Virus record (IMG/VR): IMGVR_UViG_2526164668_000026
Origin: a virus
Taxonomy: Duplodnaviria; Heunggongvirae; Uroviricota; Caudoviricetes
Length of the DNA: 37,200 nt
Strand: one strand, 5' to 3'
In this document: in pieces, positions 1 to 36,197 of the stretch
How positions within the stretch are numbered: position 1 is the stretch's first letter
Layout: every line of letters begins with the position of its first letter
The notes under the pieces: generated by a model
What the model was told of the DNA's origin: nothing
Databases searched by the model: none
The model's input: only the letters and a program-made list of their open reading frames with translations
Made by a program: the position numbers and the translations under genes

Positions 1-1002
1 TTACCCTCTATTGTCAAAAGGATTCAATTCAACAGCAGCCTCTAAATGACCTGGAGCAAAATGCGCATAACGCATAGTCATTTTTATATCGCTATGCCCC
101 AGTATTTTTTGCAACACAAGAATATTTCCGCCCCGCATCATAAAATGACTGGCAAACGTGTGACGTAGCACATGAGTTAATTGCCCATCAGGAAGCTCGA
201 TCTTCGCTCTCTTAATTGCAGCGTCAAAAGCCTCATAACATGGTGAAAATAGCGCTCCTCGTTTTTTGGGAAGCATAGCCTGCAATTGAGGTGAAATCGG
301 TACAGTGCGGTTCTTCTTTCCTTTAGTTTTAACAAATGTGATTCGACCGGGCAGTACTTGAGATTGCTTTAATCCTTCTGCTTCACTCCACCGAGCACCA
401 GTCGCAAGCCCAATACGGACAACAACCCCCAAATCTTTATTCCGTGACTCATCACACGCAATCAGAAGGCGTTCAATCTCATCTACATACAGAAACGCCA
501 GTTCCTTTTCTTCCTCACGAAACTTGCGAATACCAGTCAGGGGGTTTTCACCAGACCACTCCCCAAGGCGCTTCAGTTCGGCAAAAACAGCATGTAGATA
601 TGACTGCTCGCGATTAACGGTTGCTTCACTAAGTTTTTTCTTCCCCTTGGGATTCCATTCTCCTGATAGCCTTCTTTCCCGATAAGTGGCAAACATATTT
701 TTGTCAAACTGAGAAGCAAATGGATCTCCCAGCCTGGAACAAATCGCCTCAAGTTTGACTTTGCGCTCTGCACCAGAGGACAAGGTTTTACCGTACATCT
801 CAAACCAACGAGCAATCAACTCAGAAAGACGAGGACCAGAACCATCTTGAAACTCGTCTCCAACTCTACTATTCATTAAACGGCGCTCATAAGAGAGCGC
901 CTCACTTTTTGTCGCAAACTGTTTACGAATGCGTTTTCCCGATGCCCCGTAGGGATAACATTCGCAAAGCCATTTACCTGATGGAATCTTACGAACCGAC
1001 AT
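1..1002 (-). CDS. int: Phage tyrosine integrase (P2/186-like)
   Basis: 333-aa ORF with C-terminal tyrosine-recombinase catalytic region (..ATGARWSE.., ..HVLRHTFASHF.., ..LGHSDIKMTMRYAH); sits at the prophage end downstream of the repressor operon. Confidence 0.9.
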   Translation of the reverse strand: MSVRKIPSGKWLCECYPYGASGKRIRKQFATKSEALSYERRLMNSRVGDEFQDGSGPRLSELIARWFEMYGKTLSSGAERKVKLEAICSRLGDPFASQFDKNMFATYRERRLSGEWNPKGKKKLSEATVNREQSYLHAVFAELKRLGEWSGENPLTGIRKFREEEKELAFLYVDEIERLLIACDESRNKDLGVVVRIGLATGARWSEAEGLKQSQVLPGRITFVKTKGKKNRTVPISPQLQAMLPKKRGALFSPCYEAFDAAIKRAKIELPDGQLTHVLRHTFASHFMMRGGNILVLQKILGHSDIKMTMRYAHFAPGHLEAAVELNPFDNRG

Positions 1003-1007
1003 TTTAG

Positions 1008-1355
1008 TTACTTATCACATAAATCAAATGCAGCCTTAGTGACATCCCCCAGACTCTTTTTTAACCCTGGGGCGGCATCATTATCTAGCCAAAATGGATT
1101 ATTGTTATCTAACGGTAACGCACCAAATGTTTTACCTTTTATTCGAGCCAAACCTGTAAGTGCATATAACTTATTATCGTCAAAATTCATCACATAAGGA
1201 TTACCATCAAGACACTGTAATTGAACCTCATCAGTATTAAATGGCCATACCCCATTGAAACTCTCACGTTCAATAGTTTTAAAAGGCATTGCGACGGCGG
1301 AAAAAGAAAACATAGATAAAAAAGTAACTAATAGTTGAACCTTTTTTACTTTCAT
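1008..1355 (-). CDS. Small secreted/periplasmic protein (signal peptide; resembles YebY/DUF2511-type proteins by recollection)
   Basis: 115-aa ORF with hydrophobic N-terminal signal-like segment (LLVTFLSMFSFSAVA), two Cys; lies between repressor operon and int on the same strand. Confidence 0.5.
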   Translation of the reverse strand: MKVKKVQLLVTFLSMFSFSAVAMPFKTIERESFNGVWPFNTDEVQLQCLDGNPYVMNFDDNKLYALTGLARIKGKTFGALPLDNNNPFWLDNDAAPGLKKSLGDVTKAAFDLCDK

Positions 1356-1384
1356 ATCATTACCTCAATTTAGCTCAAGTAAGA

Positions 1385-2035
1385 TTACAAATTAAAAAAC
1401 GCCCTAGAAATGACACCGCCTACCAAAACCCCTACGCAGATAAAGAATATTATTTCTTTTGGATAAAGTCGGATTAATTCTGAAGCACGAAGTCGGACCT
1501 CTGGTAAGGTCGAACTCTCTGTGTGGCTTGATGCCGATTGTTGCTCTAACCACGACAATGCAGACTGTAACTGAGAACGAGTAAGATCGTTTAAACGTCC
1601 TGTACCGAAATTGATATGGCAATACCGCAGAAGTTTTTGTCGAAGTCCACAGTCTTCACTGTTACGTAGTAATAAACTTACAAGAGCCTTACAGGCATCA
1701 TGATCTTTACATCGCTCAAGCATTGCATGCAGAAAACTCTCCGCTGTTTTATATTGATTTACTGTCATATCATCAATACCAGCTACACCAATCTCCGCAT
1801 GTACTTTTTGCCAAATAATAAACGCTTCAGTATTGCTAGCTTCTGCAATAGCAGCAACCAAGCTATTTAGCTCCTTACGCTGAGCCTTAAGCAAAGGGCG
1901 ATCGTCATCATCATTATTCGAAGGGATTGCGATATTGACAGTATGAGAACCATCATATCGCTCTATCTGAATATTCTTTTCGTGAAAATCACGCCCAGCA
2001 ACGCGATTGTTTGAACCGTTTGAGTTGACGGCCAT
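1385..2035 (-). CDS. Hypothetical membrane-anchored protein (C-terminal TM helix), lysogeny-operon cargo
   Basis: 216-aa ORF; C-terminal hydrophobic stretch IIFFICVGVLVGGVISRAFF; N-terminal NNRVAGRDF motif echoes the C-terminus of the upstream repressor; 13 bp downstream of the repressor stop on the same strand. Confidence 0.55.
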   Translation of the reverse strand: MAVNSNGSNNRVAGRDFHEKNIQIERYDGSHTVNIAIPSNNDDDDRPLLKAQRKELNSLVAAIAEASNTEAFIIWQKVHAEIGVAGIDDMTVNQYKTAESFLHAMLERCKDHDACKALVSLLLRNSEDCGLRQKLLRYCHINFGTGRLNDLTRSQLQSALSWLEQQSASSHTESSTLPEVRLRASELIRLYPKEIIFFICVGVLVGGVISRAFFNL

Positions 2036-2050
2036 GTCACCTCCCTACTA

Positions 2051-2455
2051 TCACCTACCCTTAGTTTCGTTATAGTCACGACCAGCGATACGGTTATTAC
2101 CACCAGAAATATTTAACTCACGTCCTGATGGCTGAGTTTCCTTTTCACTGATCGCACCTTTTAAAGCCCCAATCACCGCGTTTTTCACATCTAACGAAGC
2201 TGCTCGAAAGCGAGTAATCAACTCCTGCTCATCATCGTTATAAGTTTCAGGTGAGTGAATTCCCAACACAACATACTGAACATCAAGGCCAAAACGAGAC
2301 AGCGCTGCCAAATACGCAGCATCAGGAAAGCTATCTCCTTTCTCATATCTAAGCTGAGTTAGCTTTTTGACTCCACCAATGTCGCTCATGGCAACTTGAC
2401 TAAGTCCCAATCTTTCCCTTTCCTCACGCAACCGCTGACCAATATCATTTTTCAT
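2051..2455 (-). CDS. Immunity repressor, XRE/cI-type helix-turn-helix
   Basis: 134-aa ORF with N-terminal HTH (QRLREERERLGLSQVAMSDIGG...); divergent from the early operon; operator-like dyad in the intergenic region. Confidence 0.75.
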   Translation of the reverse strand: MKNDIGQRLREERERLGLSQVAMSDIGGVKKLTQLRYEKGDSFPDAAYLAALSRFGLDVQYVVLGIHSPETYNDDEQELITRFRAASLDVKNAVIGALKGAISEKETQPSGRELNISGGNNRIAGRDYNETKGR

Positions 2456-2464
2456 ACAAAAACC

Positions 2465-2493
2465 TTGACAGGTATCTTTTTTGATACCAAAAT
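2465..2493 (+). promoter_or_regulatory. Candidate early promoter (TTGACA -17 bp- CAAAAT) with embedded operator dyad GGTATC-N6-GATACC
   Basis: TTGACA at 2465-2470, 17-bp spacer, CAAAAT at 2488-2493; perfect inverted repeat ggtatc/gatacc at 2471-2488 inside the spacer; located between divergent repressor and early genes. Confidence 0.4.
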
Positions 2494-2530
2494 GATTTCA
2501 CGAGCTATTAGATGATCACAATATACCACT

Positions 2531-2737
2531 ATGAAACAAGTTCTTCACGATACCAGATCACGCATTCCGCGTAACACCGCCACAGGTCCAAGACTGGCAC
2601 TTCGGCTGTCCCTCGAGGAGCGAGCCGTCATTGATGAAATGGCAGCTAAAGAACAACGCTCATCCTCTAACATGGCGCGCATGATCTTCCTTCGCGGCCT
2701 AGAGCTAACCCAGAAAGAACAAAACAAATCTTCCTGA
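2531..2737 (+). CDS. First early-operon protein (Cox/Apl position; small putative DNA-binding regulator)
   Basis: 68-aa ORF, first gene rightward of the repressor; basic, helix-rich sequence; function assigned only by position. Confidence 0.4.
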   Translation: MKQVLHDTRSRIPRNTATGPRLALRLSLEERAVIDEMAAKEQRSSSNMARMIFLRGLELTQKEQNKSS

Positions 2738-2753
2738 TCAGGAGGCTAGTGGG

Positions 2754-2957
2754 ATGTCAGGTATAACCATCAATATCAATGTGAATGCCCCCTATGTATC
2801 CCTGCAGAAATATGCAGAGATAACAGGTATCCCTCTTAATACGTGCAAAAAGATGTTGGCTGACGGTCGAATTATTATCCGCCCCAAACGCGCCAAAATG
2901 GAAAAGCCTGAAGTAAACCTTGTGGCGATGTTAAAAGACGCTTTGGCTAACAGCTAA
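2754..2957 (+). CDS. Small early protein, putative HTH DNA-binding
   Basis: 67-aa ORF; GGGA RBS-like sequence just upstream; segment YAEITGIPLNTCKKMLADGRI resembles an HTH. Confidence 0.4.
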   Translation: MSGITININVNAPYVSLQKYAEITGIPLNTCKKMLADGRIIIRPKRAKMEKPEVNLVAMLKDALANS

Positions 2958-2978
2958 AACAATGAACAGAGCACCATC

Positions 2979-3329
2979 ATGAAAAAAAACGCTAATAATC
3001 CATACTCCAAATTTCGTAATGGCGTAGAACGCCATGTACACCACGTCGCTACCAGTGCATCACGTAGTAACAGTCGCTATAACCTGAACGAGACGCACGC
3101 AACACCGGATGGCCACGCTGTAAAACAAATCGGCGAGCATGCCTGGCTGATTGAGAAAGCTGGAATCGTGGTCCACAAATGCCCACGCAATCCGTTTACC
3201 GGAAACCGCATTTTTGCATTGAACTGCGGCGACAATCACTTCGGGCAGGATTTCACATTATACGAAGCACTTCGCACGGTTGATCGTCTGCTTCGCGGGC
3301 AAAGTTTTATTAAACAGGCTGATTTATAA
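2979..3329 (+). CDS. Hypothetical early protein
   Basis: 116-aa ORF in the early operon, same strand, tight spacing. Confidence 0.45.
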   Translation: MKKNANNPYSKFRNGVERHVHHVATSASRSNSRYNLNETHATPDGHAVKQIGEHAWLIEKAGIVVHKCPRNPFTGNRIFALNCGDNHFGQDFTLYEALRTVDRLLRGQSFIKQADL

Positions 3330-3352
3330 CAGGTGCTTTATGACCAAAGAGC

Positions 3353-3619
3353 ATGCACAAGGTGTATTTATCCGTTTTATTGATTTTCGCGGTGAACTGT
3401 TATTACGCGCATCAGCCATTGACGGAGTTGTTCCATCCGAAAAAAAACGCAGCTACTTACGTTTATCTGAACGGTACGCGCCTGACTGTGGAGCTTCCGT
3501 ACCAAACCGTACGAGAAATCATTAGCGAAGCTGAAAAGGCACGTCAGGTTAATGGCGATGAACCCTATATCGAAATTATTTGTATGGATTCAGAAGCTGA
3601 AATTCAGAAAGCAGATTAA
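3353..3619 (+). CDS. Hypothetical early protein
   Basis: 88-aa ORF in the early operon; the overlapping alternative frame 3280..3525 is less likely. Confidence 0.4.
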   Translation: MHKVYLSVLLIFAVNCYYAHQPLTELFHPKKNAATYVYLNGTRLTVELPYQTVREIISEAEKARQVNGDEPYIEIICMDSEAEIQKAD

Positions 3620-3630
3620 AGGGCGTTGCG

Positions 3631-3873
3631 ATGGGCAAAGAATATAAAACTCTCATTAACAAAGCACTTGAACGATTTTATTTTCGCTTAAGTGCATCAG
3701 GCGCTCATGCTGAACATGCAGCCCGTGACTCATTGACCAGGGCAATCCGGAGTTTGTATGACGTTGCTTTTTACGCTGATGATCTGGATGCACTTAACGA
3801 ACTTTCCGAGCTGATCTGTGCCGCAGAATGCGGGGAACACATTGAACCGTATAAGCTGGGGAATATCGCATGA
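3631..3873 (+). CDS. Hypothetical early protein
   Basis: 80-aa ORF preceded by an RBS-like AAGGG; stop overlaps the next start (ATGA). Confidence 0.45.
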   Translation: MGKEYKTLINKALERFYFRLSASGAHAEHAARDSLTRAIRSLYDVAFYADDLDALNELSELICAAECGEHIEPYKLGNIA

Positions 3874-3983
3874 GTATATTTATCTCATGGCTTGTTCTGA
3901 TTATTTCGGTGGCCTGCGCCATTGGGATTATGCGAATTATTCATTCAGTAAAAAAGATTGAACGCTTTTTCACTGACAAATAA
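3870..3983 (+). CDS. Candidate small single-pass membrane protein (37 aa)
   Basis: ATG at 3870 overlaps the preceding stop (ATGA coupling); translation MSIFISWLVLIISVACAIGIMRIIHSVKKIERFFTDK is one hydrophobic helix plus a basic tail; below the ORF-track size cut-off. Confidence 0.3.
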   Translation: MSIFISWLVLIISVACAIGIMRIIHSVKKIERFFTDK

Positions 3984-4075
3984 CAGCTTAAACAAAACAC
4001 CAGATTAAACCCGAAAACCTGAAAACTATCCGCATTCGCGGAGGTATTCGCACACGTAAATAACGGAGATATAAA

Positions 4076-4492
4076 ATGAACGCAAAAGAAAAAAATATTA
4101 TCAATACATTAAAAATAGTGTCAGCAGAGCAAGACAAGCTGTCCAGGGCAGCCCAGAAAGATAATCAACATATGGCAGCGCTTTACGCACTGACCATCGC
4201 AATAGCCACCTCTGAAGCAGCCAAAGTTATTGAGGAACAGAGCAAAGAAATCGACACTCTTAAAACACAGTCAACAGTTGCAGCCATGAATCCGTCCAGC
4301 ATTGGACGCTGCATTTATATTCTTGGTTCAGCAATGATGCTGCAATACACCATTATTGCCGAACTGCACGGCAAATACCTGATAACGCCTTACCACACAA
4401 AAGAGTCTGAGCTTCTGACAAATCTCCGCCTGATAGAACGCTCTCAAGCTGTATTCATTGATGACGCGCAACGTGCCGTATTTAACGCATAG
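4076..4492 (+). CDS. Hypothetical early protein
   Basis: 138-aa ORF with GGAG RBS upstream (..aacGGAGatataaaATG). Confidence 0.5.
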   Translation: MNAKEKNIINTLKIVSAEQDKLSRAAQKDNQHMAALYALTIAIATSEAAKVIEEQSKEIDTLKTQSTVAAMNPSSIGRCIYILGSAMMLQYTIIAELHGKYLITPYHTKESELLTNLRLIERSQAVFIDDAQRAVFNA

Positions 4493-4515
4493 GGTTACTG
4501 GACAAAGGGGGCGCA

Positions 4516-4719
4516 ATGGCAATTAAGCATTTTTCCGTCGTTCGCTTTACCTCCAGAGGGCGCGAATACGAGGTCGACGAACGCCTGATTACCACTATCG
4601 ACAAACATCGTTCGGAAAAGGATGCGCACCACATCTACCTCACTGACGGCACTTATTTCTGCGCCACCAACGTGGCGCGGGTGAATCTTATCCGACAAGT
4701 ACAGGAGCCACGCAGATGA
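4516..4719 (+). CDS. Hypothetical early protein
   Basis: 67-aa ORF with RBS-like AAGGGGG upstream; coupled to the next ORF. Confidence 0.4.
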   Translation: MAIKHFSVVRFTSRGREYEVDERLITTIDKHRSEKDAHHIYLTDGTYFCATNVARVNLIRQVQEPRR

Positions 4720-4982
4720 CCATTCTGGACTACATCGCTACTCATCCGGGGTGTAGCGGCGGAGAGATCGCCGCAGCACTGAATACTCCAACCACAGCCA
4801 TTAATGCTGAGTTACGCCAACTTTGGCGCGGCGGCTTAGTCATCAGAACAAACCGCAGCACAGGTGGTCGCGCTCGCAAAACTGGAGGCCAGGCTTCTTA
4901 CCACGTAAACCCGATGCCGTTCGGGTGTAGCAATCCACTTACTCACATGTTTAACCAGCTACTGAAGGAAGCCAGAACATGA
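4716..4982 (+). CDS. Hypothetical small DNA-binding (winged-helix-like) protein
   Basis: 88-aa ORF; start overlaps the previous stop; N-terminal segment resembles a winged-helix fold. Confidence 0.45.
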   Translation: MTILDYIATHPGCSGGEIAAALNTPTTAINAELRQLWRGGLVIRTNRSTGGRARKTGGQASYHVNPMPFGCSNPLTHMFNQLLKEART

Positions 4983-5269
4983 GCACCATCAACCACCAGA
5001 AGCTACGCGAACTGGCATTTGCCCTGCAACGAATGGCAACGCCTCAAAAATTACTGGCATTTCGCGCAATGCTCTCGCCGTCTGCTGTGCTGGCACTGCT
5101 GGATCAGCTGGAGCACGCCAGAACCACGGCTCCTGCCATTCGCCTCACGCTCCATCATGAAATCGCTGATTTCTGCGCAACGCTGGGGGCACCTGGCGAA
5201 CCGGAAACGCCGGAAGCAATGCAGCAAGAGCTGCTGCAACGCATCGATAACGTTTTTGATTTTTTCTGA
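4979..5269 (+). CDS. Hypothetical early protein
   Basis: 96-aa ORF; start overlaps the previous stop (ATGA). Confidence 0.45.
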   Translation: MSTINHQKLRELAFALQRMATPQKLLAFRAMLSPSAVLALLDQLEHARTTAPAIRLTLHHEIADFCATLGAPGEPETPEAMQQELLQRIDNVFDFF

Positions 5270-5599
5270 ACCAGTAAGAAACCAGAACATGCACACACAA
5301 AAAAACCGCTTGCCATGCCTCAATCGGTCAGGTTACATTTCCGCTGCACCTCATAAAACGGGTGCCGGGATTCTCAACCCGATACAGAGCAAAGCGCATA
5401 ACCGCGCAAGCGGTTTTTTTGTGCGTACTGTATTGCCACGTCTTTTTCGCGTCAGAATTATGGCGGGGCGTACGGGGCCGACTTCGGTCGGGCCGGATTC
5501 TTTGCTCTCCGGTGTTGAGAACCCTGTACGTCTCGCCACCCCGAGATTCTCAACTCTGGATGGTGAGTTATTTCTATCACCGAGCAAAGAGGCCACACC

Positions 5600-5830
5600 A
5601 TGGCAGACCGCAAACAGCACCGCGCTATCGCGGAGCGTCGTCACATCCAGACTGAAATCAACCACAGACTTTCCCGCGCATCACGCGTCGCGCAAATCAT
5701 GCACATCAATATGCTGCATGAGCGCAGCCACGCACTATCAAACATTTATTCCGCCTCTGTTTTCAGCTATCTGGCGGATGATCTGCACGAGCTTCAACAG
5801 CTCATCCAGCAGCAAAACAAACTCCATTAA
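5600..5830 (+). CDS. Hypothetical early protein
   Basis: 76-aa ORF with RBS-like AGAGG upstream; follows a structured non-coding region. Confidence 0.4.
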   Translation: MADRKQHRAIAERRHIQTEINHRLSRASRVAQIMHINMLHERSHALSNIYSASVFSYLADDLHELQQLIQQQNKLH

Positions 5831-5902
5831 TTCCTGTTCCGGGCCTTTCCTGCACCTTGCGGCGGGAGGCCTTCGCACATCTGTAACAAGAGGATTGCCG
5901 CA

Positions 5903-6268
5903 ATGATTCTCGCCAACGACTTTCTTGAATACCTGCTCAACACAGAACGTGATCTTGCCGCTCGCGTGCGTGATCGTTATGACATGTACCTGAAATCCCT
6001 GCCTGTACCGCAGCTCGCTGACGGAAAGATTGTTATTGATGGTCGCTACATGATTGACAGCCACGAGGGAAATTACAGGCTTTACCGCATTGAAGGTGGC
6101 ACCCCGTCCGTTATTGGCATTTACCAGCGCCCATCCTCTGCAATCGTCGATGTGATTGCCGACAGCATCCGCATCACACATCGCCATGCCGACACAGAAG
6201 ACACCGTGCTGGAAATTCAGCGGCTGGCTACAGTCTGCCGCGACACCCTGAATGGCATGACGAAGTAA
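5903..6268 (+). CDS. Hypothetical early protein immediately upstream of the replication gene
   Basis: 121-aa ORF, same strand and close to gene A. Confidence 0.45.
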   Translation: MILANDFLEYLLNTERDLAARVRDRYDMYLKSLPVPQLADGKIVIDGRYMIDSHEGNYRLYRIEGGTPSVIGIYQRPSSAIVDVIADSIRITHRHADTEDTVLEIQRLATVCRDTLNGMTK

Positions 6269-6274
6269 ATCACT

Positions 6275-9037
6275 ATGACGGCAGAGTACATCAGGGACTG
6301 GCAACAACCGCGCCACGCAGTGGGGCGTGAAGGAACGGGGATCCCCGCTCCTGAATCCGCGCTTTCCTCCTGGCTGGATGCCTACCGGGTAGAGAACGAG
6401 CGCCGCCAGGAAATGGCTGATGCGGCGTTCTCCGCCACGCCGCTGGGCAACCTGATTAATAAAAGCCTGGACGCACAGGAAAAACAGGACAAAACCATCA
6501 CACTGGCAGGAGACGCCAGAAAACAGGCACGCGGCGCGGTGGATGAAGCCATGGCCTCGCTGCGCCTGCTGCCGTCCTATCTGCGCGATCCGCTTATTCG
6601 CCACCTCTCCTTCCTGCGCAAAAAACAGGAAGCCGATCGCCGGAAAGGCAAAAAGAGCTGGCAGGCGGAACGCTATGCACGCGGAACCCTGCGCAAAATA
6701 TTCGAACGTCTGGATAGCACTGACGGACGCTGGCTGACACCGGGTTATCGCTCCCTTGCCGGACGCGAACGCCTGGACGATTTGCTTTACCTGCCGCAGC
6801 TCAACAAACACCAGATACAGACGCTGGCCACCATGACGGCGGCGATGTTCAGCAGCACCTTCGAAAAACTCTGCGATGGCTTTGGCGCGACCGATGGCGA
6901 GCTGACCATGGATGTAACCCTGAAGGCGTATCAGATGCTGGCCCGCATGGCGTTACACCTGCACGCCATGCCTCCACATTATGACGCACTGACAACAGAC
7001 AAAGACCGGAGGAACGAACCGGACACGGAGCTGCTGCCGGGCGCAATCCTTCGCCTGACCTGTGCGGAATGGTGGAAACGCAAACTGTGGCTGTTACGTT
7101 GCGAGTGGAGAGAAGAACAACTCCGCGCCGCCTGTCTGGTTTCCAGAAAAACATCACCCTATCTGAGCCAGGACGCGTTAAGCGAGTTTCGCGCACAGCG
7201 CGAGAAAACACGCGATTTCCTGAAAAGTTTCATGCTGGAAAATGAAGACGGGTTCACGATTGATCTCGAGACAGTGTATTACGCGGGAGTAAGTAACCCG
7301 GTTCACCGTAAGGCAGAAATGATGGCCACCATGAAGGGGTTGGAACTTCTGGCCGAAGCCCGTGGCGACAAAGCGGTGTTTCTGACTGTCACCTGCCCGT
7401 CAAAATACCACGCCACAACGGAGAACGGTCATCCGAATCCCAAATGGAACGGGGCCACAATGCGCGACTCCAGCGATTACCTGGTTAACACGTTTTTTGC
7501 GGCGGTCCGCAAAAAACTGAACCGCGACGGCCTGCGCTGGTATGGCATCCGCACGGTGGAGCCTCATCATGACGGCACCGTGCACTGGCATATGATGGTC
7601 TTTGCACATCCGGAAGAAATCGACACCATTGTGTCCCATACCCGCGATATTGCCATTCAGGAAGACCGCCACGAGCTGGGCAATGATATTACTCCGCGCT
7701 TTAAGGTGGAGTATGTCGACGGCTCAAAAGGCACGCCAACCAGCTACATCGCCACCTACATCGGAAAGAACCTGGACAGCCGCGCCGTGGATGGCATCGA
7801 CCCGAAAACGGGCAAGCCACGCGTGGACCACGAAACCGGAAAATCAATGGCCGAGAGCGTGGAGCGCGCCATCGGCTGGGCGCGCCTTCACCGGGTCCGT
7901 CAGTTCCAGTTCTTTGGCATCCCCTCCCGTCAGGTGTGGCGTGAACTGCGCCGCCTTGCCAGCCAGATGGCACGCAATCCGGAAGGCCCGCAACGGCTGA
8001 AAGATGATGCAATGGATGCGGTACTCGCTGCCGCCGATGCCGGGTGTTTTGCCACCTACATTAAAAAACAGGGTGGCGTGCTTGTTCCACGCAAGGACTA
8101 CCTGATTCGCACCGCCTACGACCTCGCAGATGAGCTGAACGATTACGGCGAACAGAGCGTACAGATTTACGGAATCTGGTCACCACTCATCGGGGAATCC
8201 TCCCGTGTGTGCACGCATCCGGATAACTGGAAGCTAGTAAGACGTAAACCGGAAGCGGAAGACAGCGCCCGCGAAAATGGTTTTGACCTTCAGGGCGGCC
8301 CTGCCGCCCCTTGGACTCGTGGCAATAACTGTCCCCGTGTACAGGAAACAGACAACAACAGGACAGAACAGCCGGAAGAACGGCCAGCACTGTGGCCGCA
8401 GCTTCCTGACGGCGTTGATGTGGATGAATGGATGCGCTCACTGAAACGGCACGAACGCCGGGCGCTGATGCGTTCGCTGCGTGACAAACAGGCAAAAAAC
8501 AGCAGTGATGAAATGCAGAGCTGGACACAGAGCCGCAAACAGCAGCGGCCTTTGCCTGATAACCACGAATTACTCGCTAAAGAATGGCGGGAATCTGCCG
8601 AATCTCTCGGCCTGCATATCGGTGAACAGCAGATGCAGCACCTGTTACGGGGCGGCAGCTTGTACGTTGACGGCAGCATCATTGCACCACAGGGATTTGA
8701 AATTGTACGCAAACCGGATACCCGCCCGGACAGCCGAATCACGCAGCTCTGGCAGCGCCTGAGCCGTAATCACGGCGTAAGCAGCACGGAGATCCGCCAT
8801 AACCCGGTCGCCAGCTATCTGGAACAGCTGGGGGCATCAGACCCCAAAGCCGCCGCACGCCTGGCATCCACACTTCAGCAGGACCAGAACACCATGAAAA
8901 CCCCCGTTACTGTGCTTTCTGACATGCTGCGCGCCATTCACGACACAGAGCACACACAAAGAATCTGTGAAACAACCGAACGCGCCTGCCACAAAGCTGA
9001 CCTACTGCGAAGAGGAGTAAAGAGTGGGAACAAATAA
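6275..9037 (+). CDS. A: Replication initiation protein A (HUH rolling-circle endonuclease, P2 gpA-like)
   Basis: 920-aa ORF; HUH motif (..GTVHWHMMVFAHPEE..) followed by a tyrosine pair (..YIATYIGKN..); last large gene of the early operon. Confidence 0.85.
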   Translation: MTAEYIRDWQQPRHAVGREGTGIPAPESALSSWLDAYRVENERRQEMADAAFSATPLGNLINKSLDAQEKQDKTITLAGDARKQARGAVDEAMASLRLLPSYLRDPLIRHLSFLRKKQEADRRKGKKSWQAERYARGTLRKIFERLDSTDGRWLTPGYRSLAGRERLDDLLYLPQLNKHQIQTLATMTAAMFSSTFEKLCDGFGATDGELTMDVTLKAYQMLARMALHLHAMPPHYDALTTDKDRRNEPDTELLPGAILRLTCAEWWKRKLWLLRCEWREEQLRAACLVSRKTSPYLSQDALSEFRAQREKTRDFLKSFMLENEDGFTIDLETVYYAGVSNPVHRKAEMMATMKGLELLAEARGDKAVFLTVTCPSKYHATTENGHPNPKWNGATMRDSSDYLVNTFFAAVRKKLNRDGLRWYGIRTVEPHHDGTVHWHMMVFAHPEEIDTIVSHTRDIAIQEDRHELGNDITPRFKVEYVDGSKGTPTSYIATYIGKNLDSRAVDGIDPKTGKPRVDHETGKSMAESVERAIGWARLHRVRQFQFFGIPSRQVWRELRRLASQMARNPEGPQRLKDDAMDAVLAAADAGCFATYIKKQGGVLVPRKDYLIRTAYDLADELNDYGEQSVQIYGIWSPLIGESSRVCTHPDNWKLVRRKPEAEDSARENGFDLQGGPAAPWTRGNNCPRVQETDNNRTEQPEERPALWPQLPDGVDVDEWMRSLKRHERRALMRSLRDKQAKNSSDEMQSWTQSRKQQRPLPDNHELLAKEWRESAESLGLHIGEQQMQHLLRGGSLYVDGSIIAPQGFEIVRKPDTRPDSRITQLWQRLSRNHGVSSTEIRHNPVASYLEQLGASDPKAAARLASTLQQDQNTMKTPVTVLSDMLRAIHDTEHTQRICETTERACHKADLLRRGVKSGNK

Positions 9038-9257
9038 TCAAAAGAAACGGAGTTTGAAAATCAAATGATAAATAAAAGAAGGATATTCACACAGAACATG
9101 TGTATCTATGAAATGCCAATAAAATTAAATTGGTATGGACCACAAACTATGTAACATAGTGGGCTTAAACAACTTCAAATAATAAAAATAAGTAAAGCCC
9201 TAAGTCCAATCATTTAAGGCTTCAATTATCTTAGTGATTAAATATGACTCACAGTTC

Positions 9258-10622
9258 TTATTTTATAGTCATATTAGCTATTGATGTGGAAATATTAAAG
9301 ATATGGTTATATTCAAACGCAAAATCACCTTCTATACGCTGAACATAACTTCCCTTTTCATTACGTAATAGTTTTAATGTTTCTTTATCGATGTAATAAT
9401 AATCCAATAGTTCTTTAAGCAATTTAATTTCCGTCTTTGATGAAAAATAATCAGATTTTATATTAAGTAATTCTAATATCTCTTCAGAAGACATTTCCTT
9501 CTTAAGTAGTCGATTTAACATATCTGGAGAAGTTACTTTCAAGAAACAAACCAATGCTAATGCAATCATATAATAATTATCATCATTATTCGCTATACAC
9601 GTATGATTATCCACTACAAGCATAGTTGAAATACATCGTTCAACTTCTCGCAGCGAGCAATTATTGGTTTCAATCAAGCATGATAAGACTCTTACAAAAG
9701 CACCATCTGTATTAATACCTAGAGAGTGATTCTGTTGTAGAGTTTTTTTAATATACGTTGTAATCGTTGTTTTGTTAGATGCTTGTAACACCATAGAGTC
9801 ATACATATTTATTTTGGGCAAAGAAAACCAATAATGAATAAATTTATTCAAGTACAGACCAGTATTGATATCACCATATTTATATGCAATTCCCTTTTCA
9901 AATTGCTCTCGATTCATTACCAATAAGAAAACCATACCTTTCACAGAAAAAAGATGCTTAATTTTTTCCAATAGCTCTAGAGAATAATCTGGGCGGGCTC
10001 GATCAAGTTCATCAATAATAATCAAGGTTTTTCTCTTTGTATTTGTATATATTTCTTCTAAAGCTTTTTTAAAGTCAGCAATTGAGTTTTTTTCCTGCTC
10101 CATGGATTTTATTTTCTCTTCAACAAAAGACTCTAACTCACTATTAATGGAATCGCTAACTGTTTTTCCTGCCTCATCAAGAGCAGAACCATTCACAACA
10201 CCTGCTGTCAGGGTTGTAATAGCTACCTTTGCACCTCCGATTAATATTTTTGCACCTATTTTCTTACCAGTTTTAATAATGCGATCAGCTACATCTTCGG
10301 CCTCTACTCCTCTGTGTTTTAGTAAATTATATAGTTCAGATGATATTGAAATAAATGGATCTGATTGATAATCATTTTCAAATGCATCGAAATAAACAAC
10401 ATCTATATATTCACTATTAGTTAATTCTAATTCTGATTTTAACATCTTAACAAATGATGTTTTACCGCTACCCCATATATCATCTAACGCAAAAACCAAA
10501 TTTGAGTCAGGAGCATTAATAATAAGCCGTATCATTTGATCATATAATGTCTTACGATTAAATATGTCAGATGTAATATCAAAACCATTCTCAAAACCAT
10601 TCTGATTAGTAGTTATATTCAT
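9258..10622 (-). CDS. KAP-family P-loop NTPase (candidate stand-alone anti-phage defence gene)
   Basis: 454-aa ORF; Walker A DDIWGSGKTSF, Walker B LIIIDELDRA, hydrophobic Gly-rich insert (IGAKILIGGAKVAITTLTAGVV) between them as in KAP NTPases; GGAG RBS 5 nt upstream of ATG; sits in a visibly AT-rich island at the position of P2 tin/old. Confidence 0.8.
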   Translation of the reverse strand: MNITTNQNGFENGFDITSDIFNRKTLYDQMIRLIINAPDSNLVFALDDIWGSGKTSFVKMLKSELELTNSEYIDVVYFDAFENDYQSDPFISISSELYNLLKHRGVEAEDVADRIIKTGKKIGAKILIGGAKVAITTLTAGVVNGSALDEAGKTVSDSINSELESFVEEKIKSMEQEKNSIADFKKALEEIYTNTKRKTLIIIDELDRARPDYSLELLEKIKHLFSVKGMVFLLVMNREQFEKGIAYKYGDINTGLYLNKFIHYWFSLPKINMYDSMVLQASNKTTITTYIKKTLQQNHSLGINTDGAFVRVLSCLIETNNCSLREVERCISTMLVVDNHTCIANNDDNYYMIALALVCFLKVTSPDMLNRLLKKEMSSEEILELLNIKSDYFSSKTEIKLLKELLDYYYIDKETLKLLRNEKGSYVQRIEGDFAFEYNHIFNISTSIANMTIK

Positions 10623-11426
10623 AGTAACTCCATTTTTTCCTTATTGAAATTAAATTAGCATTATAAACAAACACTCTCATTAAAAAAGCAAACGAATAAT
10701 AATGATTTATGATATCTTGCTATTTATCTAAAAAATTTGCAATCACAAAAAATCATATAATTAATTAAAGGTTCTTCATGCTGAAAAATAGTTATCAAAT
10801 AGTATATAGTATTGTTTTTAATTGAATGCCATAATAATTACCTTAGTCCTTTAAAACTTCCAACGATGTGGCCCCAGTTATACAGTCACATATCAAGTCC
10901 TGAAACAGTATGCACATCAAATAGGGTTATGAATCTTTTTTCATATCTTGCGATCATTAAAATCTTCTCTGCTACGAGCAAATTTACCATCCGTTCTTTA
11001 CGTAGAAAACAGCACGATACACACTGCACAATAGTGCACAAATTTGCACAATTTTTTTGAACGACTTTTTGCCCTTCCGGCCCGCGTGGCGGCTGGATCC
11101 GTCAGGGATCCGTGCGTGCACAAAAAAACGCGCTTTTTCTGCGCGCAGGTGACGGGGGAACAGCCCGCGTTTCAGGGGGTAAATAGCGTTCCCTTAACGA
11201 TGTCGCAGCGACACGACAGAATGGCCGTATTTCTCACGCTGAGCGTGAAAAATACGTGAGGGATTCTGATTTGATGGGGTGAAAGGTAAGGCCGTCAAAA
11301 TCGCACTGAGGCGGCGAGAACATGCAGTCAACGCGGTGGGATTGCGTAAGAGTCTGAACGTCGATGGTGGCGATAAACTGGAAGGCGTCGTGAAATTATC
11401 TGACTGATACAGGAGCTGGAGAGTCG

Positions 11427-11475: not shown

Positions 11476-12522
11476 TCAGGATGTGGGCTGGATGTCTAAC
11501 AGTGCGTAAGGGTTAAAGCGGATCACCTCTTCGCCAAACCAGTCATTGATGTGCTTCATGGCCTCCATGACGGGCATCAGCTCGTTAATTGCGTAAACCC
11601 GCGCGGCCTTCTCCACATCACCAAACGCACTTTTTTCACCCGGCATCGCCCCCATCAGTTGCGGCGGAACGCGGTGCGCAGCCAGCACATCATCACGGGA
11701 TGCCGCCTTAACATTCATGAACTCATCCTTTGCGGTGATCTGCTGGAACGGCAAAATTTGCACCCCCTCTTTGCCCCCGTTGGGCGCATGAATGAGCACG
11801 TTTTTAAACGCACCGCCACCACGTGCACCCTGTAGCGTTTCTTTCAGGGAGTCCATGCTTTCGCGGTTTACCTGCGCTGCACCGATGTAGATGATGCACC
11901 CGGCGTGGGATCCGTTGTCGTAATACAGTTTTCTGAACATGTCCGCCGAATGAGACAGGCTGGCCGAGAGTAATGCGCCGAGATATTCCGGCATGCCGTA
12001 GATTTCCTGGTTAATGTCAGGATTCATCAGGTGGCACACTTTGCCAGGGCGAAACTGAAACGCGTCCTTACCATCCTGCACATACCACCATGATTCAAGA
12101 TCGCTTCCGCGTCGCATGTATTTCGCCAGGGCGTGCCGTAATTTAAGCGGTTCGCCGAGCATATTGCTTCGAAGCTCAAGGAATGCGTTACCGAACACAA
12201 ACCAGTCCAGCGCCAGCGCCGAGAAATCCTGCCGGGAAAGCAGCGGGTGCGGAATATAGCAACCGAGCAATACATTGCGCTTAAAGTAAAGCGCAGACTG
12301 ATGCCAGGACGTTTGCCGGGCAGCTCTTGCCAGACCGTACCAGTCCACCGGGGTTTCATACCACCGCCCGTTATCAGCACAGTACATATTGTCCAGCAAA
12401 TCATGCCCGGTCAGGCGATAAGGACCATCAAATGTGAATGCACTGAGCGACGATTCTTTCCTGAGCGCATCAGCGAGATCAATGCGTGAACTCATGCGCA
12501 CTTTTTTATTTTTTCTGCTCAT
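11476..12522 (-). CDS. Q: Portal protein (P2 gpQ-like)
   Basis: 348-aa ORF, leftward, adjacent to and overlapping the terminase ATPase gene, as in P2 Q-P. Confidence 0.85.
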   Translation of the reverse strand: MSRKNKKVRMSSRIDLADALRKESSLSAFTFDGPYRLTGHDLLDNMYCADNGRWYETPVDWYGLARAARQTSWHQSALYFKRNVLLGCYIPHPLLSRQDFSALALDWFVFGNAFLELRSNMLGEPLKLRHALAKYMRRGSDLESWWYVQDGKDAFQFRPGKVCHLMNPDINQEIYGMPEYLGALLSASLSHSADMFRKLYYDNGSHAGCIIYIGAAQVNRESMDSLKETLQGARGGGAFKNVLIHAPNGGKEGVQILPFQQITAKDEFMNVKAASRDDVLAAHRVPPQLMGAMPGEKSAFGDVEKAARVYAINELMPVMEAMKHINDWFGEEVIRFNPYALLDIQPTS

Positions 12523-14273
12523 CAGAACTCCATAACCGTGAAACGCTCGTTTTCTCCTTCGCCGCCAATCGGTTCGTTAATGACAGCAAGCATGGTTGCC
12601 CACGCAAGGTCGCCGTGGCTGATCCCCCTCGCGCGGTCCGTTTCGTAAGTGATAAAACCGCCCGGTGTTTTCACCTTACGCACGGCGTTAAAGGCCGCGA
12701 CCAGCTCGCGTTCGGCGCGATCGTATTCCCACCGCCCGGCACGCATTATTTGCAGCATTTTCAGTACCAGCGACCGTTTTGATGACAGCGTGAAGGTGTA
12801 CGGAATAGCAGCAGGGAAAAACCGTTTCACTATCTGATAAACAGCCTCCCCGTTCCCGCCCGTCACATCAATGCCGATGTGTTCCACGTTGTAGCGATAC
12901 GTGAACTCTTCAATGACTCTGGCCTGTTCTTCAAACTCCAGCCCCTGAACGCGTCGCGTCTCCACCGTTCGAAAACGGCCACCAGGAACAGCCGGAGGAA
13001 CCACCACGGACACTGCGCCGCTGTCGCCGTTTCCACTGCTGCCGTTTGCGTCATACCCAATCCATACCGGACGATTCCCCATCGGGCGGGGAGCAAAAGG
13101 TTTCCAGTCTTTCCAGTCGTCGTATCCGTCAACACCGCAGCCAATCAGGATATTCAGGTTAAATGCCGATTCCCCTTCGCGGACAAACTCACACATATAG
13201 AGATTGAGGAACTCGTCTTCGGTGTTTTCATCACGAATTTCGTCGATATCGGTGTGTTTCCAGCCGTGATTAACCACATCTTCCAGCGTGACAATTTGCC
13301 GCCACGTCCGGTCAGGGCAGATAAGCCCGTTATGCAGCGTTTTCCAGTCCACAGAAAAACGCTGGCGTTTATGCGAGGCCTTTTTCTCGTTCCAGCGGTC
13401 GCCGTTCCAGTAGGCGTATGCCTCGTGCGTTTCGGTGGATGGCGTGGAGAAGTAGGTGCGCCGCAGTCCGCTGAGGGTTGCCATAGCGCCAGCCACCTTG
13501 CGCAGTTCAGCAAAGCGACTGACCCAGAAAAATTCATCAAAATAAAAATTGCCCGTATAGGACTGTGCCGACGCAGCAGAAGTGCCGAGAAAATGCAGCT
13601 CTGCGCCGTTGGAGAGGATGATTTTATCGCCCCCTTTCAGCTCCACATCAACTTCAGCCGCGGCCTTCTGAATAATGCTTTTAAACTGGAACGCCTGACG
13701 ACGCGACGCAGACAAAAAAATCTGGTTACGCTGGTAAGGTTGCGCCACATCGTCACGCAGCGCCATCAGCAGTGCTTCCTGTGCAAAATACCAGGTCGCC
13801 CCAATCTGTCGGGATTTCAGGATCATCCTGTTACGTATCCCGGCTTCCCTGCAAAGGGTCAGGGAGTCAAACCAGCCCCGCTGATGCCACTCCAGCCTGC
13901 TGATGATTTTTTCCCGCAGTGCGGCAATCTGTTCCGGCGTGAAATGATTTTTGAGTTTTTTCGCCCGGCCTTTCTTTCCTGCGGCCATCACATCCGGCTG
14001 ACCATCATGCAGCTTTTTAAGCTGCCGGGTCAGCAGGTCTATTTCCTTAAAGTCACCGCCTGTTTTATTCTGTTTTTCAGTAAGCTGGATGAGGCGCGCA
14101 TCGATGGACTGCGTGACACGCTGCACGGGTGGCGTTTCATCCCACTGGTCACGTTTTTTCCACGCATAAATCGTGTTCGGGTTTATTCCCATCAGACGTG
14201 ATATTTCTGCGGGCGGATAACCCTGCCAGTAAAGTTGCCGCGCACGCTGGCGCACAAAAGCGTCCTGAATCAT
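12522..14273 (-). CDS. P: Terminase large (ATPase) subunit (P2 gpP-like)
   Basis: 583-aa ORF; leftward, paired with portal gene and divergent from the scaffold/capsid operon. Confidence 0.85.
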   Translation of the reverse strand: MIQDAFVRQRARQLYWQGYPPAEISRLMGINPNTIYAWKKRDQWDETPPVQRVTQSIDARLIQLTEKQNKTGGDFKEIDLLTRQLKKLHDGQPDVMAAGKKGRAKKLKNHFTPEQIAALREKIISRLEWHQRGWFDSLTLCREAGIRNRMILKSRQIGATWYFAQEALLMALRDDVAQPYQRNQIFLSASRRQAFQFKSIIQKAAAEVDVELKGGDKIILSNGAELHFLGTSAASAQSYTGNFYFDEFFWVSRFAELRKVAGAMATLSGLRRTYFSTPSTETHEAYAYWNGDRWNEKKASHKRQRFSVDWKTLHNGLICPDRTWRQIVTLEDVVNHGWKHTDIDEIRDENTEDEFLNLYMCEFVREGESAFNLNILIGCGVDGYDDWKDWKPFAPRPMGNRPVWIGYDANGSSGNGDSGAVSVVVPPAVPGGRFRTVETRRVQGLEFEEQARVIEEFTYRYNVEHIGIDVTGGNGEAVYQIVKRFFPAAIPYTFTLSSKRSLVLKMLQIMRAGRWEYDRAERELVAAFNAVRKVKTPGGFITYETDRARGISHGDLAWATMLAVINEPIGGEGENERFTVMEF

Positions 14274-22685: not shown

Positions 22686-24914
22686 ATGAGTACCACAACA
22701 CGAAAATTTAAAACCGTTATCACCGATACGGGTGCAAAAAAATTAGCTCAGGCAGCCGCGCCAGATGGTAAGCCTGTCCGCCTGACTCATATGGCCGTGG
22801 GCGACGGTGGCGGCACGTTGCCCACACCAGACAGTAAGCAGACCCGTCTGGTGCATGAGGTGTGGCGACATACTGTTAATCGCGTCATCCTGGACGCAAC
22901 ACATCAGAACCGCATTATTGCGGAGCTGGTTATTCCTCCTGAAACGGGCGGATTCTGGATCCGGGAAATTGGTGTATTTGATGAGCACGGCGATTTAATC
23001 GCGGTGGGCAATACTGCCGAAAGTTACAAACCAACCGTTGCCGAGGGGTCCGGACGTGCACAAACATTTCGCACCATTCTGACCGTATCCAGCACTGCCA
23101 CCGTGGCGCTTACCGTGGATAACACCATGGTGATGGCCACAGTGGATTACGTGGATGACAAACTGAAAGAGCATGAACAGTCACGACGTCACCCGGACGC
23201 CTCGCTGACCGCAAAAGGCTTTGTTCAACTCAGTAGCGCCACTAACAGCGTGTCTGAAACGCAGGCTGCAACGCCGAAAGCAGTAAAGGCCGCGTATGAT
23301 CTTGCTAACGGTAAATATACTGCGCAGGATGCCAGCACGACGCGAAAAGGCCTTGTCCAGCTCAGTAGCGCCACCAACAGCACGTCTGAAACGCAGGCTG
23401 CAACGCCGAAAGCAGTAAAGGCCGCGTATGACCTTGCTAACGCAAAATATACCGCTCAGGACGCTACGACGGCACAAAAAGGGATAGTCCAGCTCAGTAG
23501 TGCCACCAACAGCACGTCTGAAACACTGGCCGCGACATCGAAAGCGGTTAAGGCGGTAATGGATGAAACGAACAAGAAAGCGCCCTTAAACAGTCCTGCG
23601 TTGACCGGAACGCCAACAACGCCAACTGCGCGACAGGGAACGAATAATACCCAAATCGCAAGCACGGCTTTCGTTATGGCTGCGATTGCCGCCCTTGTAG
23701 ATTCGTCACCTGACGCACTGAATACGCTGAACGAGTTAGCGGCGGCGCTGGGAAACGACCCGAATTTTGCGACCACCATGACTAACGCGCTTGCGGGTAA
23801 GCAACCGAAAGATGCCACCCTGACGGCGCTGGCCGGGCTTGCTACTGCGGCAGACAAGTTTCCGTATTTTACGGGGAATGATGTCGCCAGCCTGGCAACC
23901 CTGACAAAAGTCGGGCGGGATATTCTTGCGAAATCGACCGTTGCCGCCGTTATCGAATACCTCGGTTTACAAGAAACGGTAAATCAGGCTTCTGGCGCAT
24001 TACAGAAAAACCAGAACGGCGCAGATATTCCAGGAAAAGATACCTTCACAAAAAATATTGGTGCATGTCGCGCTTTTCACAGTGCTATTAGTACAGGGGC
24101 AGGGAACTGGACAACGGCACAATTGATTGAATGGCTGGATTCTCAAGGGGCATTCAATCACCCATACTGGATGTGCAAATGTTCATGGTCATACGGCAAT
24201 AATAAAATTATTACCGATACTGGCTGTGGAACTATTCATCTTGCAGGTTGCGTTATTGAGGTTATGGGTAATAAAGGTGCCATGACCATCCGTGTAACAA
24301 CACCAAGCACTTCCACCGGAGGCGGCATCACTAACGCTCAATTCACTTATATTAATCATGGTGATGCTTATGCTCCTGGCTGGCGAAGAGACTACAACAC
24401 GAAAAACCAGCAGCCTGCATTTGCTTTAGGGCAAACAGGAAGCAGGGTTGCAAATGATAAAGCTGTTGGCTGGAACTGGAATAGCGGCGTTTATGATGCA
24501 GATATCAGTGGCGCATCGACATTAATCCTCCACTTTAATATGAATGCGGGGAGTTGCCCTGCTGTACAGTTCCGCGTGAATTATAAAAACGGCGGTATCT
24601 TTTATCGTTCAGCGCGTGATGGTTATGGCTTTGAAGCTAACTGGTCAGAGTTTTACACCACAACCCGCAAACCCTCTGCGGGGGATGTTGGTGCATATAC
24701 GCAGGCAGAATGTAACTCAAGGTTTATTACAGGTATTCGCCTGGGCGGTCTGTCATCTGTTCAGACATGGAATGGTCCCGGCTGGTCTGACAGGTCAGGT
24801 TATGTCGTTACAGGTTCAGTTAACGGAAACCGTGATGAATTAATTGATACAACACAGGCAAGGCCAATTCAGTATTGCATTAATGGAACGTGGTATAACG
24901 CGGGGAGTATTTAA
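22686..24914 (+). CDS. H: Tail fibre protein (P2 gpH-like); C-terminal third lies inside the invertible segment
   Basis: 742-aa ORF; three tandem ~44-aa fibre repeats; reads across the left crossover site at 23950-23975; followed by the assembly chaperone gene. Confidence 0.9.
23217..23585 (+). repeat. Three tandem ~132-bp coding repeats within H
   Basis: Units start at 23217, 23349 and 23481 (ggc[tc]ttgt[tc]ca[ag]ctcagtagcgcca...); encode [11 protein letters not shown].SET.AAT.KAVKA... Confidence 0.85.
23950..23975. promoter_or_regulatory. Left crossover site of the invertible segment (gix/cix/hix-like)
   Basis: ttatcgaatacc-tc-ggtttacaagaa is an imperfect 12-2-12 dyad and the inverted partner of the site at 27009-27034; it starts an ~85-bp inverted repeat (23950-24037 vs 26947-27034). 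Confidence 0.7.
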
Positions 24915-26005: not shown

Positions 26006-26006
26006 A

Positions 26007-26984: not shown

Positions 26985-27008
26985 CGCACCAGAAGCCTGA
27001 TTTACCGT

Positions 27009-27034
27009 TTCCTGTAAACCGAGGTTTTAGATAA
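27009..27034. promoter_or_regulatory. Right crossover site of the invertible segment (gix-like)
   Basis: ttcctgtaaacc-ga-ggttttagataa, 12-2-12 dyad, inverted relative to the 23950-23975 site; 55 bp upstream of the invertase start. Confidence 0.75.
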
Positions 27035-36153: not shown

Positions 36154-36197
36154 TCACGACACTGCTTATTGCTTTGATTTTATTCTTATCTTTCCCA

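Follow-up and report, generated by a model that had tools for sequence, protein, structure and literature searches.

Four stand-alone KAP-like P-loop nucleoside triphosphatases (NTPases), PifA, Tmn, EF_KAP and Reve, have been described as phage defences, and here we compare with them a candidate fifth, encoded by kap, a 454-residue gene in a P88-like (P2-family) prophage of Escherichia coli. The window, meaning the whole stretch of DNA analysed, is the 37,200-nt virus record IMGVR_UViG_2526164668_000026 of IMG/VR. Classic KAP members have two or four transmembrane (TM) helices in or associated with the NTPase domain; the known exception is PifA, which we take to be the founder of the KAP group. 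Encoded by the F plasmid and devoid of TM helices, PifA excludes T7 by membrane depolarisation and nucleotide leakage (PMC13001434). Tmn, a YobI-family decamer, has a pair of inserted TM helices; it senses RIIB, consumes ATP and exports Mg2+ (PMC13001434). EF_KAP, a protein of Enterococcus, combines N-terminal TM helices with a long C-terminal effector region and depends on its Walker B motif (PMC12632615). Reve, a single-gene KAP/AAA_22 system of P4-satellite hotspots, is protective against Drexlerviridae, with efficiencies of plating down to 2.5e-6 (Moura de Sousa et al. 2026 preprint).

The genomic setting of kap has also been described. In P2-like phages the interval between gene A and the portal gene and cos site is the tin/old defence hotspot, where 4 of 21 newly selected E. 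coli systems lay (Vassallo et al. preprint). Hotspots with many systems have been described as well, and the supplementary table of that study lists KAP_NTPase 69 times among hotspot cargo, with no test of KAP_NTPase (Rousset et al. 2022). The initial annotation of the window had assigned the gene to this hotspot, and both papers document the interval as such. Like P2 tin and old, kap occupies the slot between gene A and cos/portal and would be a case of prophage-encoded exclusion of other phages; in sequence, its product is unrelated to either.

By analogy, the window protein appears to share the logic of the validated KAP-type defences, namely a stand-alone NTPase on a mobile element with no canonical effector, though it is a member of none of Reve, Tmn and EF_KAP. 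We conclude that kap is a real, probably stand-alone candidate defence gene: a horizontally acquired one-gene cassette at the tin/old hotspot, whose TM-less ATPase, of the type of the PADLOC candidate family PDC-S20, most likely protects the lysogen against other phages (probability about 0.6). That the gene confers phage resistance by itself is, in our judgement, somewhat favoured. The integrity of the gene, its family, its location, its modularity and the selection acting on it are established by the analyses that follow.

The kap cassette and its hotspot

The block and its borders are arranged as follows, in window coordinates:

6275..9037, plus strand: gene A, replication endonuclease (so annotated in the copy in E. 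coli APEC E12053), the left border of the hotspot
9051..11021, no strand assigned: AT-rich cargo cassette of about 1.97 kb in the gene A/cos hotspot of the P88-like (P2-family) prophage
9258..10622, minus strand: kap, 454-aa KAP-family P-loop NTPase of the PADLOC candidate family PDC-S20, with an ATG start
11476..12522, minus strand: portal gene Q (phage portal protein in the annotation of the near-identical APEC prophage), with cos the right border of the hotspot

The GC content is 0.28-0.32 in four 500-bp segments across 9001-11000, against 0.53-0.60 in both flanks; sub-parts of the cassette range from 0.25 to 0.35, against 0.53-0.57 for the flanks. At third codon positions (GC3) the kap open reading frame (ORF) has 0.22, gene A 0.64 and the portal gene 0.62. 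The window is homologous to the phage P88 backbone up to about 9050 and again from 11022, and the block stands in place of the 3' end of P88 gene A, the ParM and partition-protein genes and two small ORFs. The initial annotation had drawn an AT-rich island of about 2 kb, considered to be horizontally acquired cargo, between 9037 and about 11050, and had proposed that GC content and codon usage be compared with the flanks. The composition bears out the block, the gap in P88 homology makes its borders nearly exact, and its acquisition is confirmed in that it is a swapped cassette replacing the P88 ParM/partition genes. The block is a mosaic, made up of the kap cassette and the distal relic of other cargo.

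The portal-to-gene-A arrangement is the same in all P2-like loci examined, and the content of the slot between gene A (6275-9037) and the portal gene (11476-12522) varies among close relatives, with phages P88, 569R5 and P884B11 carrying other genes there than the window. The whole island was found in 1 of 5426 complete E. coli genomes, that of APEC E12053 (99.3% identity), and in none of the 50,697 phage records searched. The APEC prophage lies beside dmsABC and shares with the window only the backbone from gene A to the structural genes (97.5% identity over 16 kb). Its integrase and immunity arm (window 1-6577) is a different one, as is its chromosomal site, dmsABC as opposed to the tRNA-Leu/Cys/Gly genes and pgsA here (window 36198-36500). 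The right flank of the window, 35700-37200, consists of pgsA and the leuZ-cysT-glyW tRNA cluster and is 99.9% identical to many E. coli chromosomes. The two prophages are mosaics with a common cargo-bearing segment.

Expression signals around kap were sought on both sides of the ORF:

10628..10631, minus strand: Shine-Dalgarno sequence GGAG, 5 nt before the kap ATG, read from the sequence
10660..10665, minus strand: perfect TATAAT hexamer, a possible -10 element about 38 nt upstream of the ATG, with no good -35 element
9176..9232, minus strand: terminator-like hairpin with a U-rich tail just past the kap stop, an 11-bp core stem plus 7 pairs, followed by UUAUUUUUAUUAUUU

A 454-aa minus-strand gene with a good ribosome-binding site had been predicted, and the ORF at 9258..10622 with its GGAG agrees with that prediction. 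The downstream hairpin has a whole-segment z-score of only -1.4 in RNA folding and was not called by a strict terminator scan. The gene is intact in both prophages, the window and APEC copies differing at 3 synonymous and 3 non-synonymous positions with no disruption. The ratio of non-synonymous to synonymous substitution rates (dN/dS) is 0.10 against the 81%-identical copy and 0.08 against the 69%-identical copy, with dS at 1.2; codon comparison therefore indicates that kap is under purifying selection (dN/dS about 0.1). The homologous copies are all of 30-34% GC, independent of host.

The initial annotation had also seen no partner gene of 60 aa or more, and this stands: none of the other ORFs of at least 60 aa in the block has the look of a gene, and the RefSeq annotation of the 99.3%-identical APEC copy includes no such gene. 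In a search of the leader and trailer for non-coding RNA, Rfam gave only chance matches to miR-430 (E=0.12 and 0.34), and no meaningful repeats were found in either region. The miR-430 matches lie on both strands inside the kap ORF (9681-9750), far below the gathering score, and are a product of AT-rich chance.

The genomic context of six homologues, with 81, 69, 65, 63, 47 and 45% identity, was examined. In all six the gene comes right after portal/cos and before gene A, and the prophages are P2-like and of different lineages; the content between kap and gene A is as follows:

81%, metagenomic: IetS (3.5e-50) and IetA (2.6e-77)
69%, Enterobacter: an RmrA-like ImmA/IrrE protein (5e-33) and a DUF3368 protein
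65%, E. coli (L027): one 95-aa ORF
63%, Klebsiella: an AbiU-like AIPR protein (7e-33)
47%, Klebsiella (L016): nothing
45%, Salmonella, 186-like (L019): nothing

At the DNA level the window resembles the 81% copy only in the ORF and a further 42 bp, up to 10664, so the moving unit is one gene. The recurrence of homologues in the slot with varying or no neighbours argues in the same direction, and it upholds the earlier description of kap as single-gene cargo. The comparison of this hotspot across related prophages, which the initial annotation had suggested, thus places the close homologues inside phage hotspots, beside IetAS, AbiU and Rosmer-like modules. We regard this genomic context as the strongest argument for a defence role.

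The stacked defence cassettes themselves occupy 9551-12923 in L005 (IetAS), 9637-11290 in L008 (RmrA-like plus DUF3368, Rosmer-like) and 9550-11238 in L012 (AbiU-like). Homologues with 35-39% identity are found outside the P2 slot: one in a relaxase-bearing island, another in a chromosomal islet of Vibrio near pheST and a third in a Serratia region that is not of P2 type. The relaxase-bearing island, in Pectobacterium (L024 9744-12515), carries a 36%-identical PDC-S20 homologue directly upstream of HxsD and two radical-SAM genes, a cluster of the His-Xaa-Ser type with DUF4145 and DUF3800 genes near it; this neighbourhood may be another defence island.

Family, fold and the inserted hairpin

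The protein belongs to the KAP family, as had been proposed from its motifs: Pfam KAP_NTPase (PF07693) matches with 132.9 bits against a cutoff of 20 (E=1.8e-38), aligning residues 27-337 to profile positions 5-289 of 293. Four PADLOC models of PDC-S20 match (PDLC04956-04959), the best being PDLC04959 (E=8.1e-76, 254 bits; residues 17-417 to profile positions 17-404 of 464), with PDLC04956 at E=1.3e-60. PADLOC classifies PDC-S20 as a single-gene system. Weaker PADLOC matches, confined to the NTPase core, are to PifA (E=1.3e-16) and QatA (E=3e-13), and at E<=1 no families other than these three were matched. NCBIfam gave only a sub-threshold match to QatA (51.1 bits against a cutoff of 600, E=8.5e-14), and PHROGs assigned the protein to phrog_8614, of unknown function (E=1.3e-102). 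The initial annotation could name no characterised defence family and had proposed a profile search; the nearest named family is the single-gene PDC-S20 (E=8e-76), a computational candidate only, and the search places the protein in a defence-candidate family and not in a housekeeping one.

The family is very large. A word-indexed search returned about 280 relatives, nearly all of about 450 aa and from Enterobacterales, annotated just as KAP or P-loop NTPase, and a profile search of 1.84 billion representatives gave 21,115 matches at E<=1e-3 and 4,463 at E<=1e-30. Nearly all of the top 150 profile matches are full-length (424-494 aa), and six are shorter, truncated. The sampled homologues all match PDC-S20 as well, the distant ones with E values from 1e-70 to 4e-90.

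The protein features are:

10452..10475, minus strand: Walker A, WGSGKTSF, residues 50-57; W50, G51, G53 and K54 invariant in 56 homologues
10038..10307, minus strand: helical hairpin, residues 106-195, between strand beta2 and the Walker B strand, with predicted helices at 106-139 and 152-195
10134-10247, minus strand: Gly/Lys-rich tip of the hairpin, residues 126-163, predicted local distance difference test score (pLDDT) below 50
9996..10025, minus strand: Walker B region, LIIIDELDRA, residues 200-209; D204, E205, D207 and R208 invariant in 56 homologues
9261..9812, minus strand: all-helical C-terminal half, residues 271-454, an AAA+ lid plus a helical bundle

Both Walker motifs had been read in the initial annotation, and the invariance of G51, G53, K54, D204 and E205 substantiates them; N237 and R325 are further invariant positions of the 56-sequence alignment. 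From this alignment AlphaFold2 (AF2) produced a model with pLDDT 79.5 and a predicted template-modelling score of 0.74. The model runs from beta1 and Walker A through a helix, beta2 (73-79), short helices and the long helical hairpin to the Walker B strand (198-204), the rest of the core and the all-helical C-terminal half. In a Foldseek search of the PDB the RdrA rings of RADAR came first (E=2.7e-7, query-normalised template-modelling score 0.41-0.46, 11-13% identity), followed by ORC/Cdc6 and clamp-loader subunits; a PDB search by sequence gave no match.

The tip of the hairpin has many G, A, T, V, I and L residues and contains a G141-x3-G145 motif. Conservation is 93% for G123, 91% for K132, 86% for T139, 80% for G141 and 82% for G145, and the three lysines K120, K121 and K132 are conserved at 77-91%. 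Judged by hydropathy alone, the insert contains no TM-grade segment, its maximum on the 19-residue Kyte-Doolittle scale being 1.49, and only 4 of the 56 family members reach 1.6, the other 52 staying below. Because of these values and the conserved K132 at its centre, the insert is not the transmembrane pair of classic KAP/YobI proteins. A hydrophobic Gly-rich insert had been named as a KAP hallmark in the initial annotation; the insert is real (about 106-195, with its tip at 126-163), but it is not membrane-spanning.

Against this background the protein can be placed among the known systems. It fits PDC-S20 by a near full-length match to the hidden Markov model, by being a single gene and by its length of about 450 aa, and no structural difference was found. 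With PifA it shares a TM-less KAP fold and a single gene on a mobile element, and the PADLOC PifA model matches residues 39-275; however, only positions 38-260 of the 720-position profile align, the 454-aa protein has no counterpart of the PifA C-terminal region, and membership was rejected for want of full-length similarity. Reve is likewise a single gene, with the Pfam pair PF07693 and PF13401 that kap also has, AT-rich and in a P2/P4-type hotspot, but it has 586 aa against 454 and matches PDC-S49, not PDC-S20. Identity with Reve was rejected on comparison with the cloned ORF (UnknownSys7 / pFD425, preprint supplement), which gave a blastp E of 0.07 over about 126 columns covering Walker A only; on sequence comparison Reve appears to be a superfamily-level relative only.

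Tmn resembles kap as a stand-alone P-loop NTPase defence with an insertion in the NTPase domain and no classical effector domain, but its insert holds two true TM helices, which are absent here, and it is of the YobI and not the KAP family. Membership in Tmn was rejected, there being no PADLOC Tmn match at E<=1 and no TM-grade segment. QatA of QatABCD has a KAP-type ATPase core, as its PADLOC and NCBIfam matches indicate, but its models have 593-646 positions and no QatB, QatC or QatD lies nearby; QatABCD was rejected on the sub-threshold NCBIfam score and the lack of other genes in the island. RdrA, which forms a heptameric ring in RADAR, is a defence ATPase and the best solved-structure match, but its length is about 780-850 aa and its partner is the RdrB deaminase, and no such second gene is present in the island; with similarity at the level of the fold only, RADAR was rejected as well.

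Proposed action and competing explanations

In the mechanism we propose, defence activity, trigger, oligomerisation and effector step are what we infer. Expression of the KAP protein from the prophage would not depend on the late operon, with a terminator-like site between the portal gene and the cassette, and the protein would idle as a monomer, ATP-bound or ATP-free. A phage product would then trigger nucleotide-dependent ring assembly, as in the structural neighbours RdrA and ORC/Cdc6. The ring could block infection by way of the sole conserved non-ATPase element, the hairpin of about 90 residues with its Gly/Lys-rich, moderately hydrophobic tip. Our preferred guess is a PifA-like action at the inner membrane or runaway ATP turnover, leading to abortive infection or growth arrest; this membrane or energy-collapse outcome is favoured because of the composition of the tip, the G-x3-G motif and the precedent of PifA. 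Any particular effector step, taken singly, is doubtful. A bolder and equally tentative suggestion is that PDC-S20 represents a minimal, effector-less class of immune ATPases, in which the conserved Gly/Lys-rich hairpin within an ORC/RdrA-like core is a new effector; deployed on ring assembly, it could attack the membrane or clamp phage nucleic acid.

Several points weigh against a protective role of this kind. A consensus sigma-70 scan of the kap leader, on the coding strand, called no promoter. DNA of 25-30% GC is likely to be silenced by H-NS in E. coli. The slot of the closest relatives holds a ParM/partition cassette, which means that location is no guarantee of defence. No effector fold is visible, as the C-terminal half comprises only the AAA+ lid and helical bundle. 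The membrane mechanism is speculative, with the insert below the usual TM hydropathy threshold and carrying a conserved lysine. A literature search found no experimental test of PDC-S20, a name that occurs in no paper searched, and for other PADLOC candidates of the PDC series one study found 4 of 8 protective, a second study 0 of 2.

Among the competing explanations, the one that survives best concerns only the effector step: the ring would use its Lys-rich hairpins to clamp phage DNA or RNA and thereby block replication or packaging. The insert sits between beta2 and Walker B, where ORC/Cdc6/DnaA proteins have their initiator-specific helical insert; the best folds are RdrA, RNA-loading states included, and the DNA-binding ORC/Cdc6; and the lysines at 120, 121 and 132 are conserved in an insert too weakly hydrophobic for a TM segment. 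On the other hand, the tip is mostly made of small and aliphatic residues, and G141-x3-G145 is more typical of membrane or helix-packing segments. Of the experimentally validated sequence relatives in PADLOC the closest is PifA, whose action is at the membrane. Neither a winged helix nor any other DNA-binding domain was detected in the C-terminal half. We consider a nucleic-acid clamp unlikely, though worth keeping in view.

The ATPase might instead be a sensor or amplifier that is not self-sufficient and needs a second system, located in cis (other prophages) or in trans (this host). The missing effector fold would fit such a role, and so would the company the protein keeps: its nearest fold, RdrA, and its sequence relative QatA are subunits of multi-gene systems, its homologues stand beside IetAS, a Rosmer-like module or AbiU in 3 of the 6 sampled P2-like loci, and Tmn synergises with ATPase-containing systems (Gabija, Septu, PrrC). 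But the adjacent modules differ each time and are absent from the window, L016 and L019, with only the 95-aa ORF in L027. PADLOC found no other system among the nine accessory ORFs of the prophage and classes the family as single-gene, and the compact KAP-type proteins EF_KAP, Reve and PifA act alone. Partner dependence is rather unlikely on this balance.

A third explanation is that the gene serves the prophage itself, in lysogen maintenance, in control of replication or packaging, or as a moron for host physiology that happens to lie in a recombination-prone slot. The cassette does replace the ParM/partition module of close relatives, so that the slot carries maintenance functions too; the fold resembles the replication-initiator clade ORC/Cdc6/DnaA; and kap adjoins cos and the replication gene. 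Yet the family is not tied to P2 biology, given the 35-39% homologues in the relaxase island, Vibrio and Serratia, and most P2-like phages are without kap, the island being present in 1 of 5426 complete E. coli genomes. Its patchy, swap-prone, low-GC distribution is typical of defence cargo, and the protein matches defence-candidate models and no replication or partition family. A service to the prophage is improbable.

Finally, that the ORF is a functionless, decaying passenger in an AT-rich block of recombination junk, as the flanking relic of another gene and the failure to call a strong promoter might suggest, is very far from probable and already largely refuted by the selection analysis, with a 454-codon frame intact, catalytic motifs invariant, dN/dS near 0.1 at a dS of 1.2 and the APEC copy undisrupted.

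The ParM and partition-protein pair occupies 8856-10131 in P88 (L003), 8900-10178 in L002 and 8900-10175 in L004, and has no PADLOC match. Phages vB_EcoM-569R5 and P884B11 carry such a pair in the gene A-to-cos slot, as P88 does. Because these closest phage relatives hold a pair without a PADLOC match, defence is not the only kind of cargo in the slot, and plasmid-like maintenance may be an option for these phages.

Other features of the prophage and significance

The region between kap and the portal gene holds the remaining features of the hotspot:

10886..11021, minus strand: what is left of an earlier cargo gene, namely the 5' region and 34 initial codons, with the ATG at 10990 and the stop at 10886
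11025..11178, no strand assigned: phage backbone beside the cassette, conserved across P2-like loci of several genera
11025-11060: triple TTGTGCA direct repeat/palindrome, AATAGTGCACAAATTTGCACAATTTT, beside cos, conserved in P2-like prophages of several genera
11146-11128, minus strand: terminator-like site after the portal operon, from the terminator scan
about 11116-11178: conserved cos-like GC-rich block, from comparison of P2-like loci

About 966 of the 5426 complete E. coli genomes have a match, of 60-89% identity, to the relic stretch at 10900-11021 (122 bp). It overlaps the first part of a hypothetical gene that P88-like prophages carry on the minus strand; in the window this gene is cut where the KAP cassette begins, and on this comparison 10886-11021 is best read as the fossil of an earlier cargo. 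The roughly 400 bp upstream of kap had been described as non-coding; there is indeed no gene, but the leader (10623-11021) contains the relic 5' end of one at 10900-11021. A 51-aa ORF at 10886-11041 was considered as a hidden partner gene and rejected, being the truncated start of the older cargo gene. The TTGTGCA palindrome could be a binding site for terminase or a host factor, or a bidirectional terminator.

On the other side of the cassette, the gene A DNA is 92-98% identical to the replication genes of P88-like phages (Xuanwuvirus, Peduoviridae) over query positions 1-2735. The product has 920 aa here as against 940 aa in P88-like phages. The ORF ends at 9037, and nucleotide homology to P88 continues to about 9050, where P88 gene A is still open; since the ORF ends before the homology does, the C-terminus of the replication protein has been shortened beside the cassette junction. 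Beyond the hotspot, the portal and large terminase genes occupy 11476-14273 on the minus strand.

Two further regions of the prophage are of a different kind. Beside the integrase, at 1008-2455 on the minus strand, lie three lower-GC genes, which encode a DUF2511 protein, a 216-aa protein without a family and an HTH_31 protein. The last has weak N-terminal similarity of the RmrA type, and PADLOC detected no system for the three genes, which may form the immunity region or a second accessory locus. A serine invertase gene (Resolvase plus HTH_7) at 27071-27676 on the plus strand adjoins oppositely oriented tail-fibre and tail-fibre-assembly genes at 25478-26984 on the minus strand, and lies downstream of the main tail-fibre gene at 22686-24914 on the plus strand. 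The interval 25478-27676 has the appearance of an invertible segment for host range, as in the Gin/Cin/Min type.

The presence of kap in this slot is expected rather than surprising, as KAP genes already appear under their Pfam name in published hotspot tables and as a candidate model in PADLOC. If kap proved not to be protective, it would serve as a caution that hotspot position and a KAP domain are insufficient to infer defence. The locus also illustrates cleanly how cassettes turn over at the P2 hotspot, with exact junctions, a cargo fossil and a cassette found in two prophages with different integration modules. For a very large uncharacterised family, kap is of value as a clean and minimal representative that can be tested. 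If kap is protective, PDC-S20, with its thousands of members, would turn from a PADLOC candidate into a validated defence system. It would then be the fifth independently evolved stand-alone KAP-like NTPase defence, beside PifA, Tmn, EF_KAP and Reve, and would offer a minimal 454-aa protein without accessory domains for the study of phage sensing and arrest.

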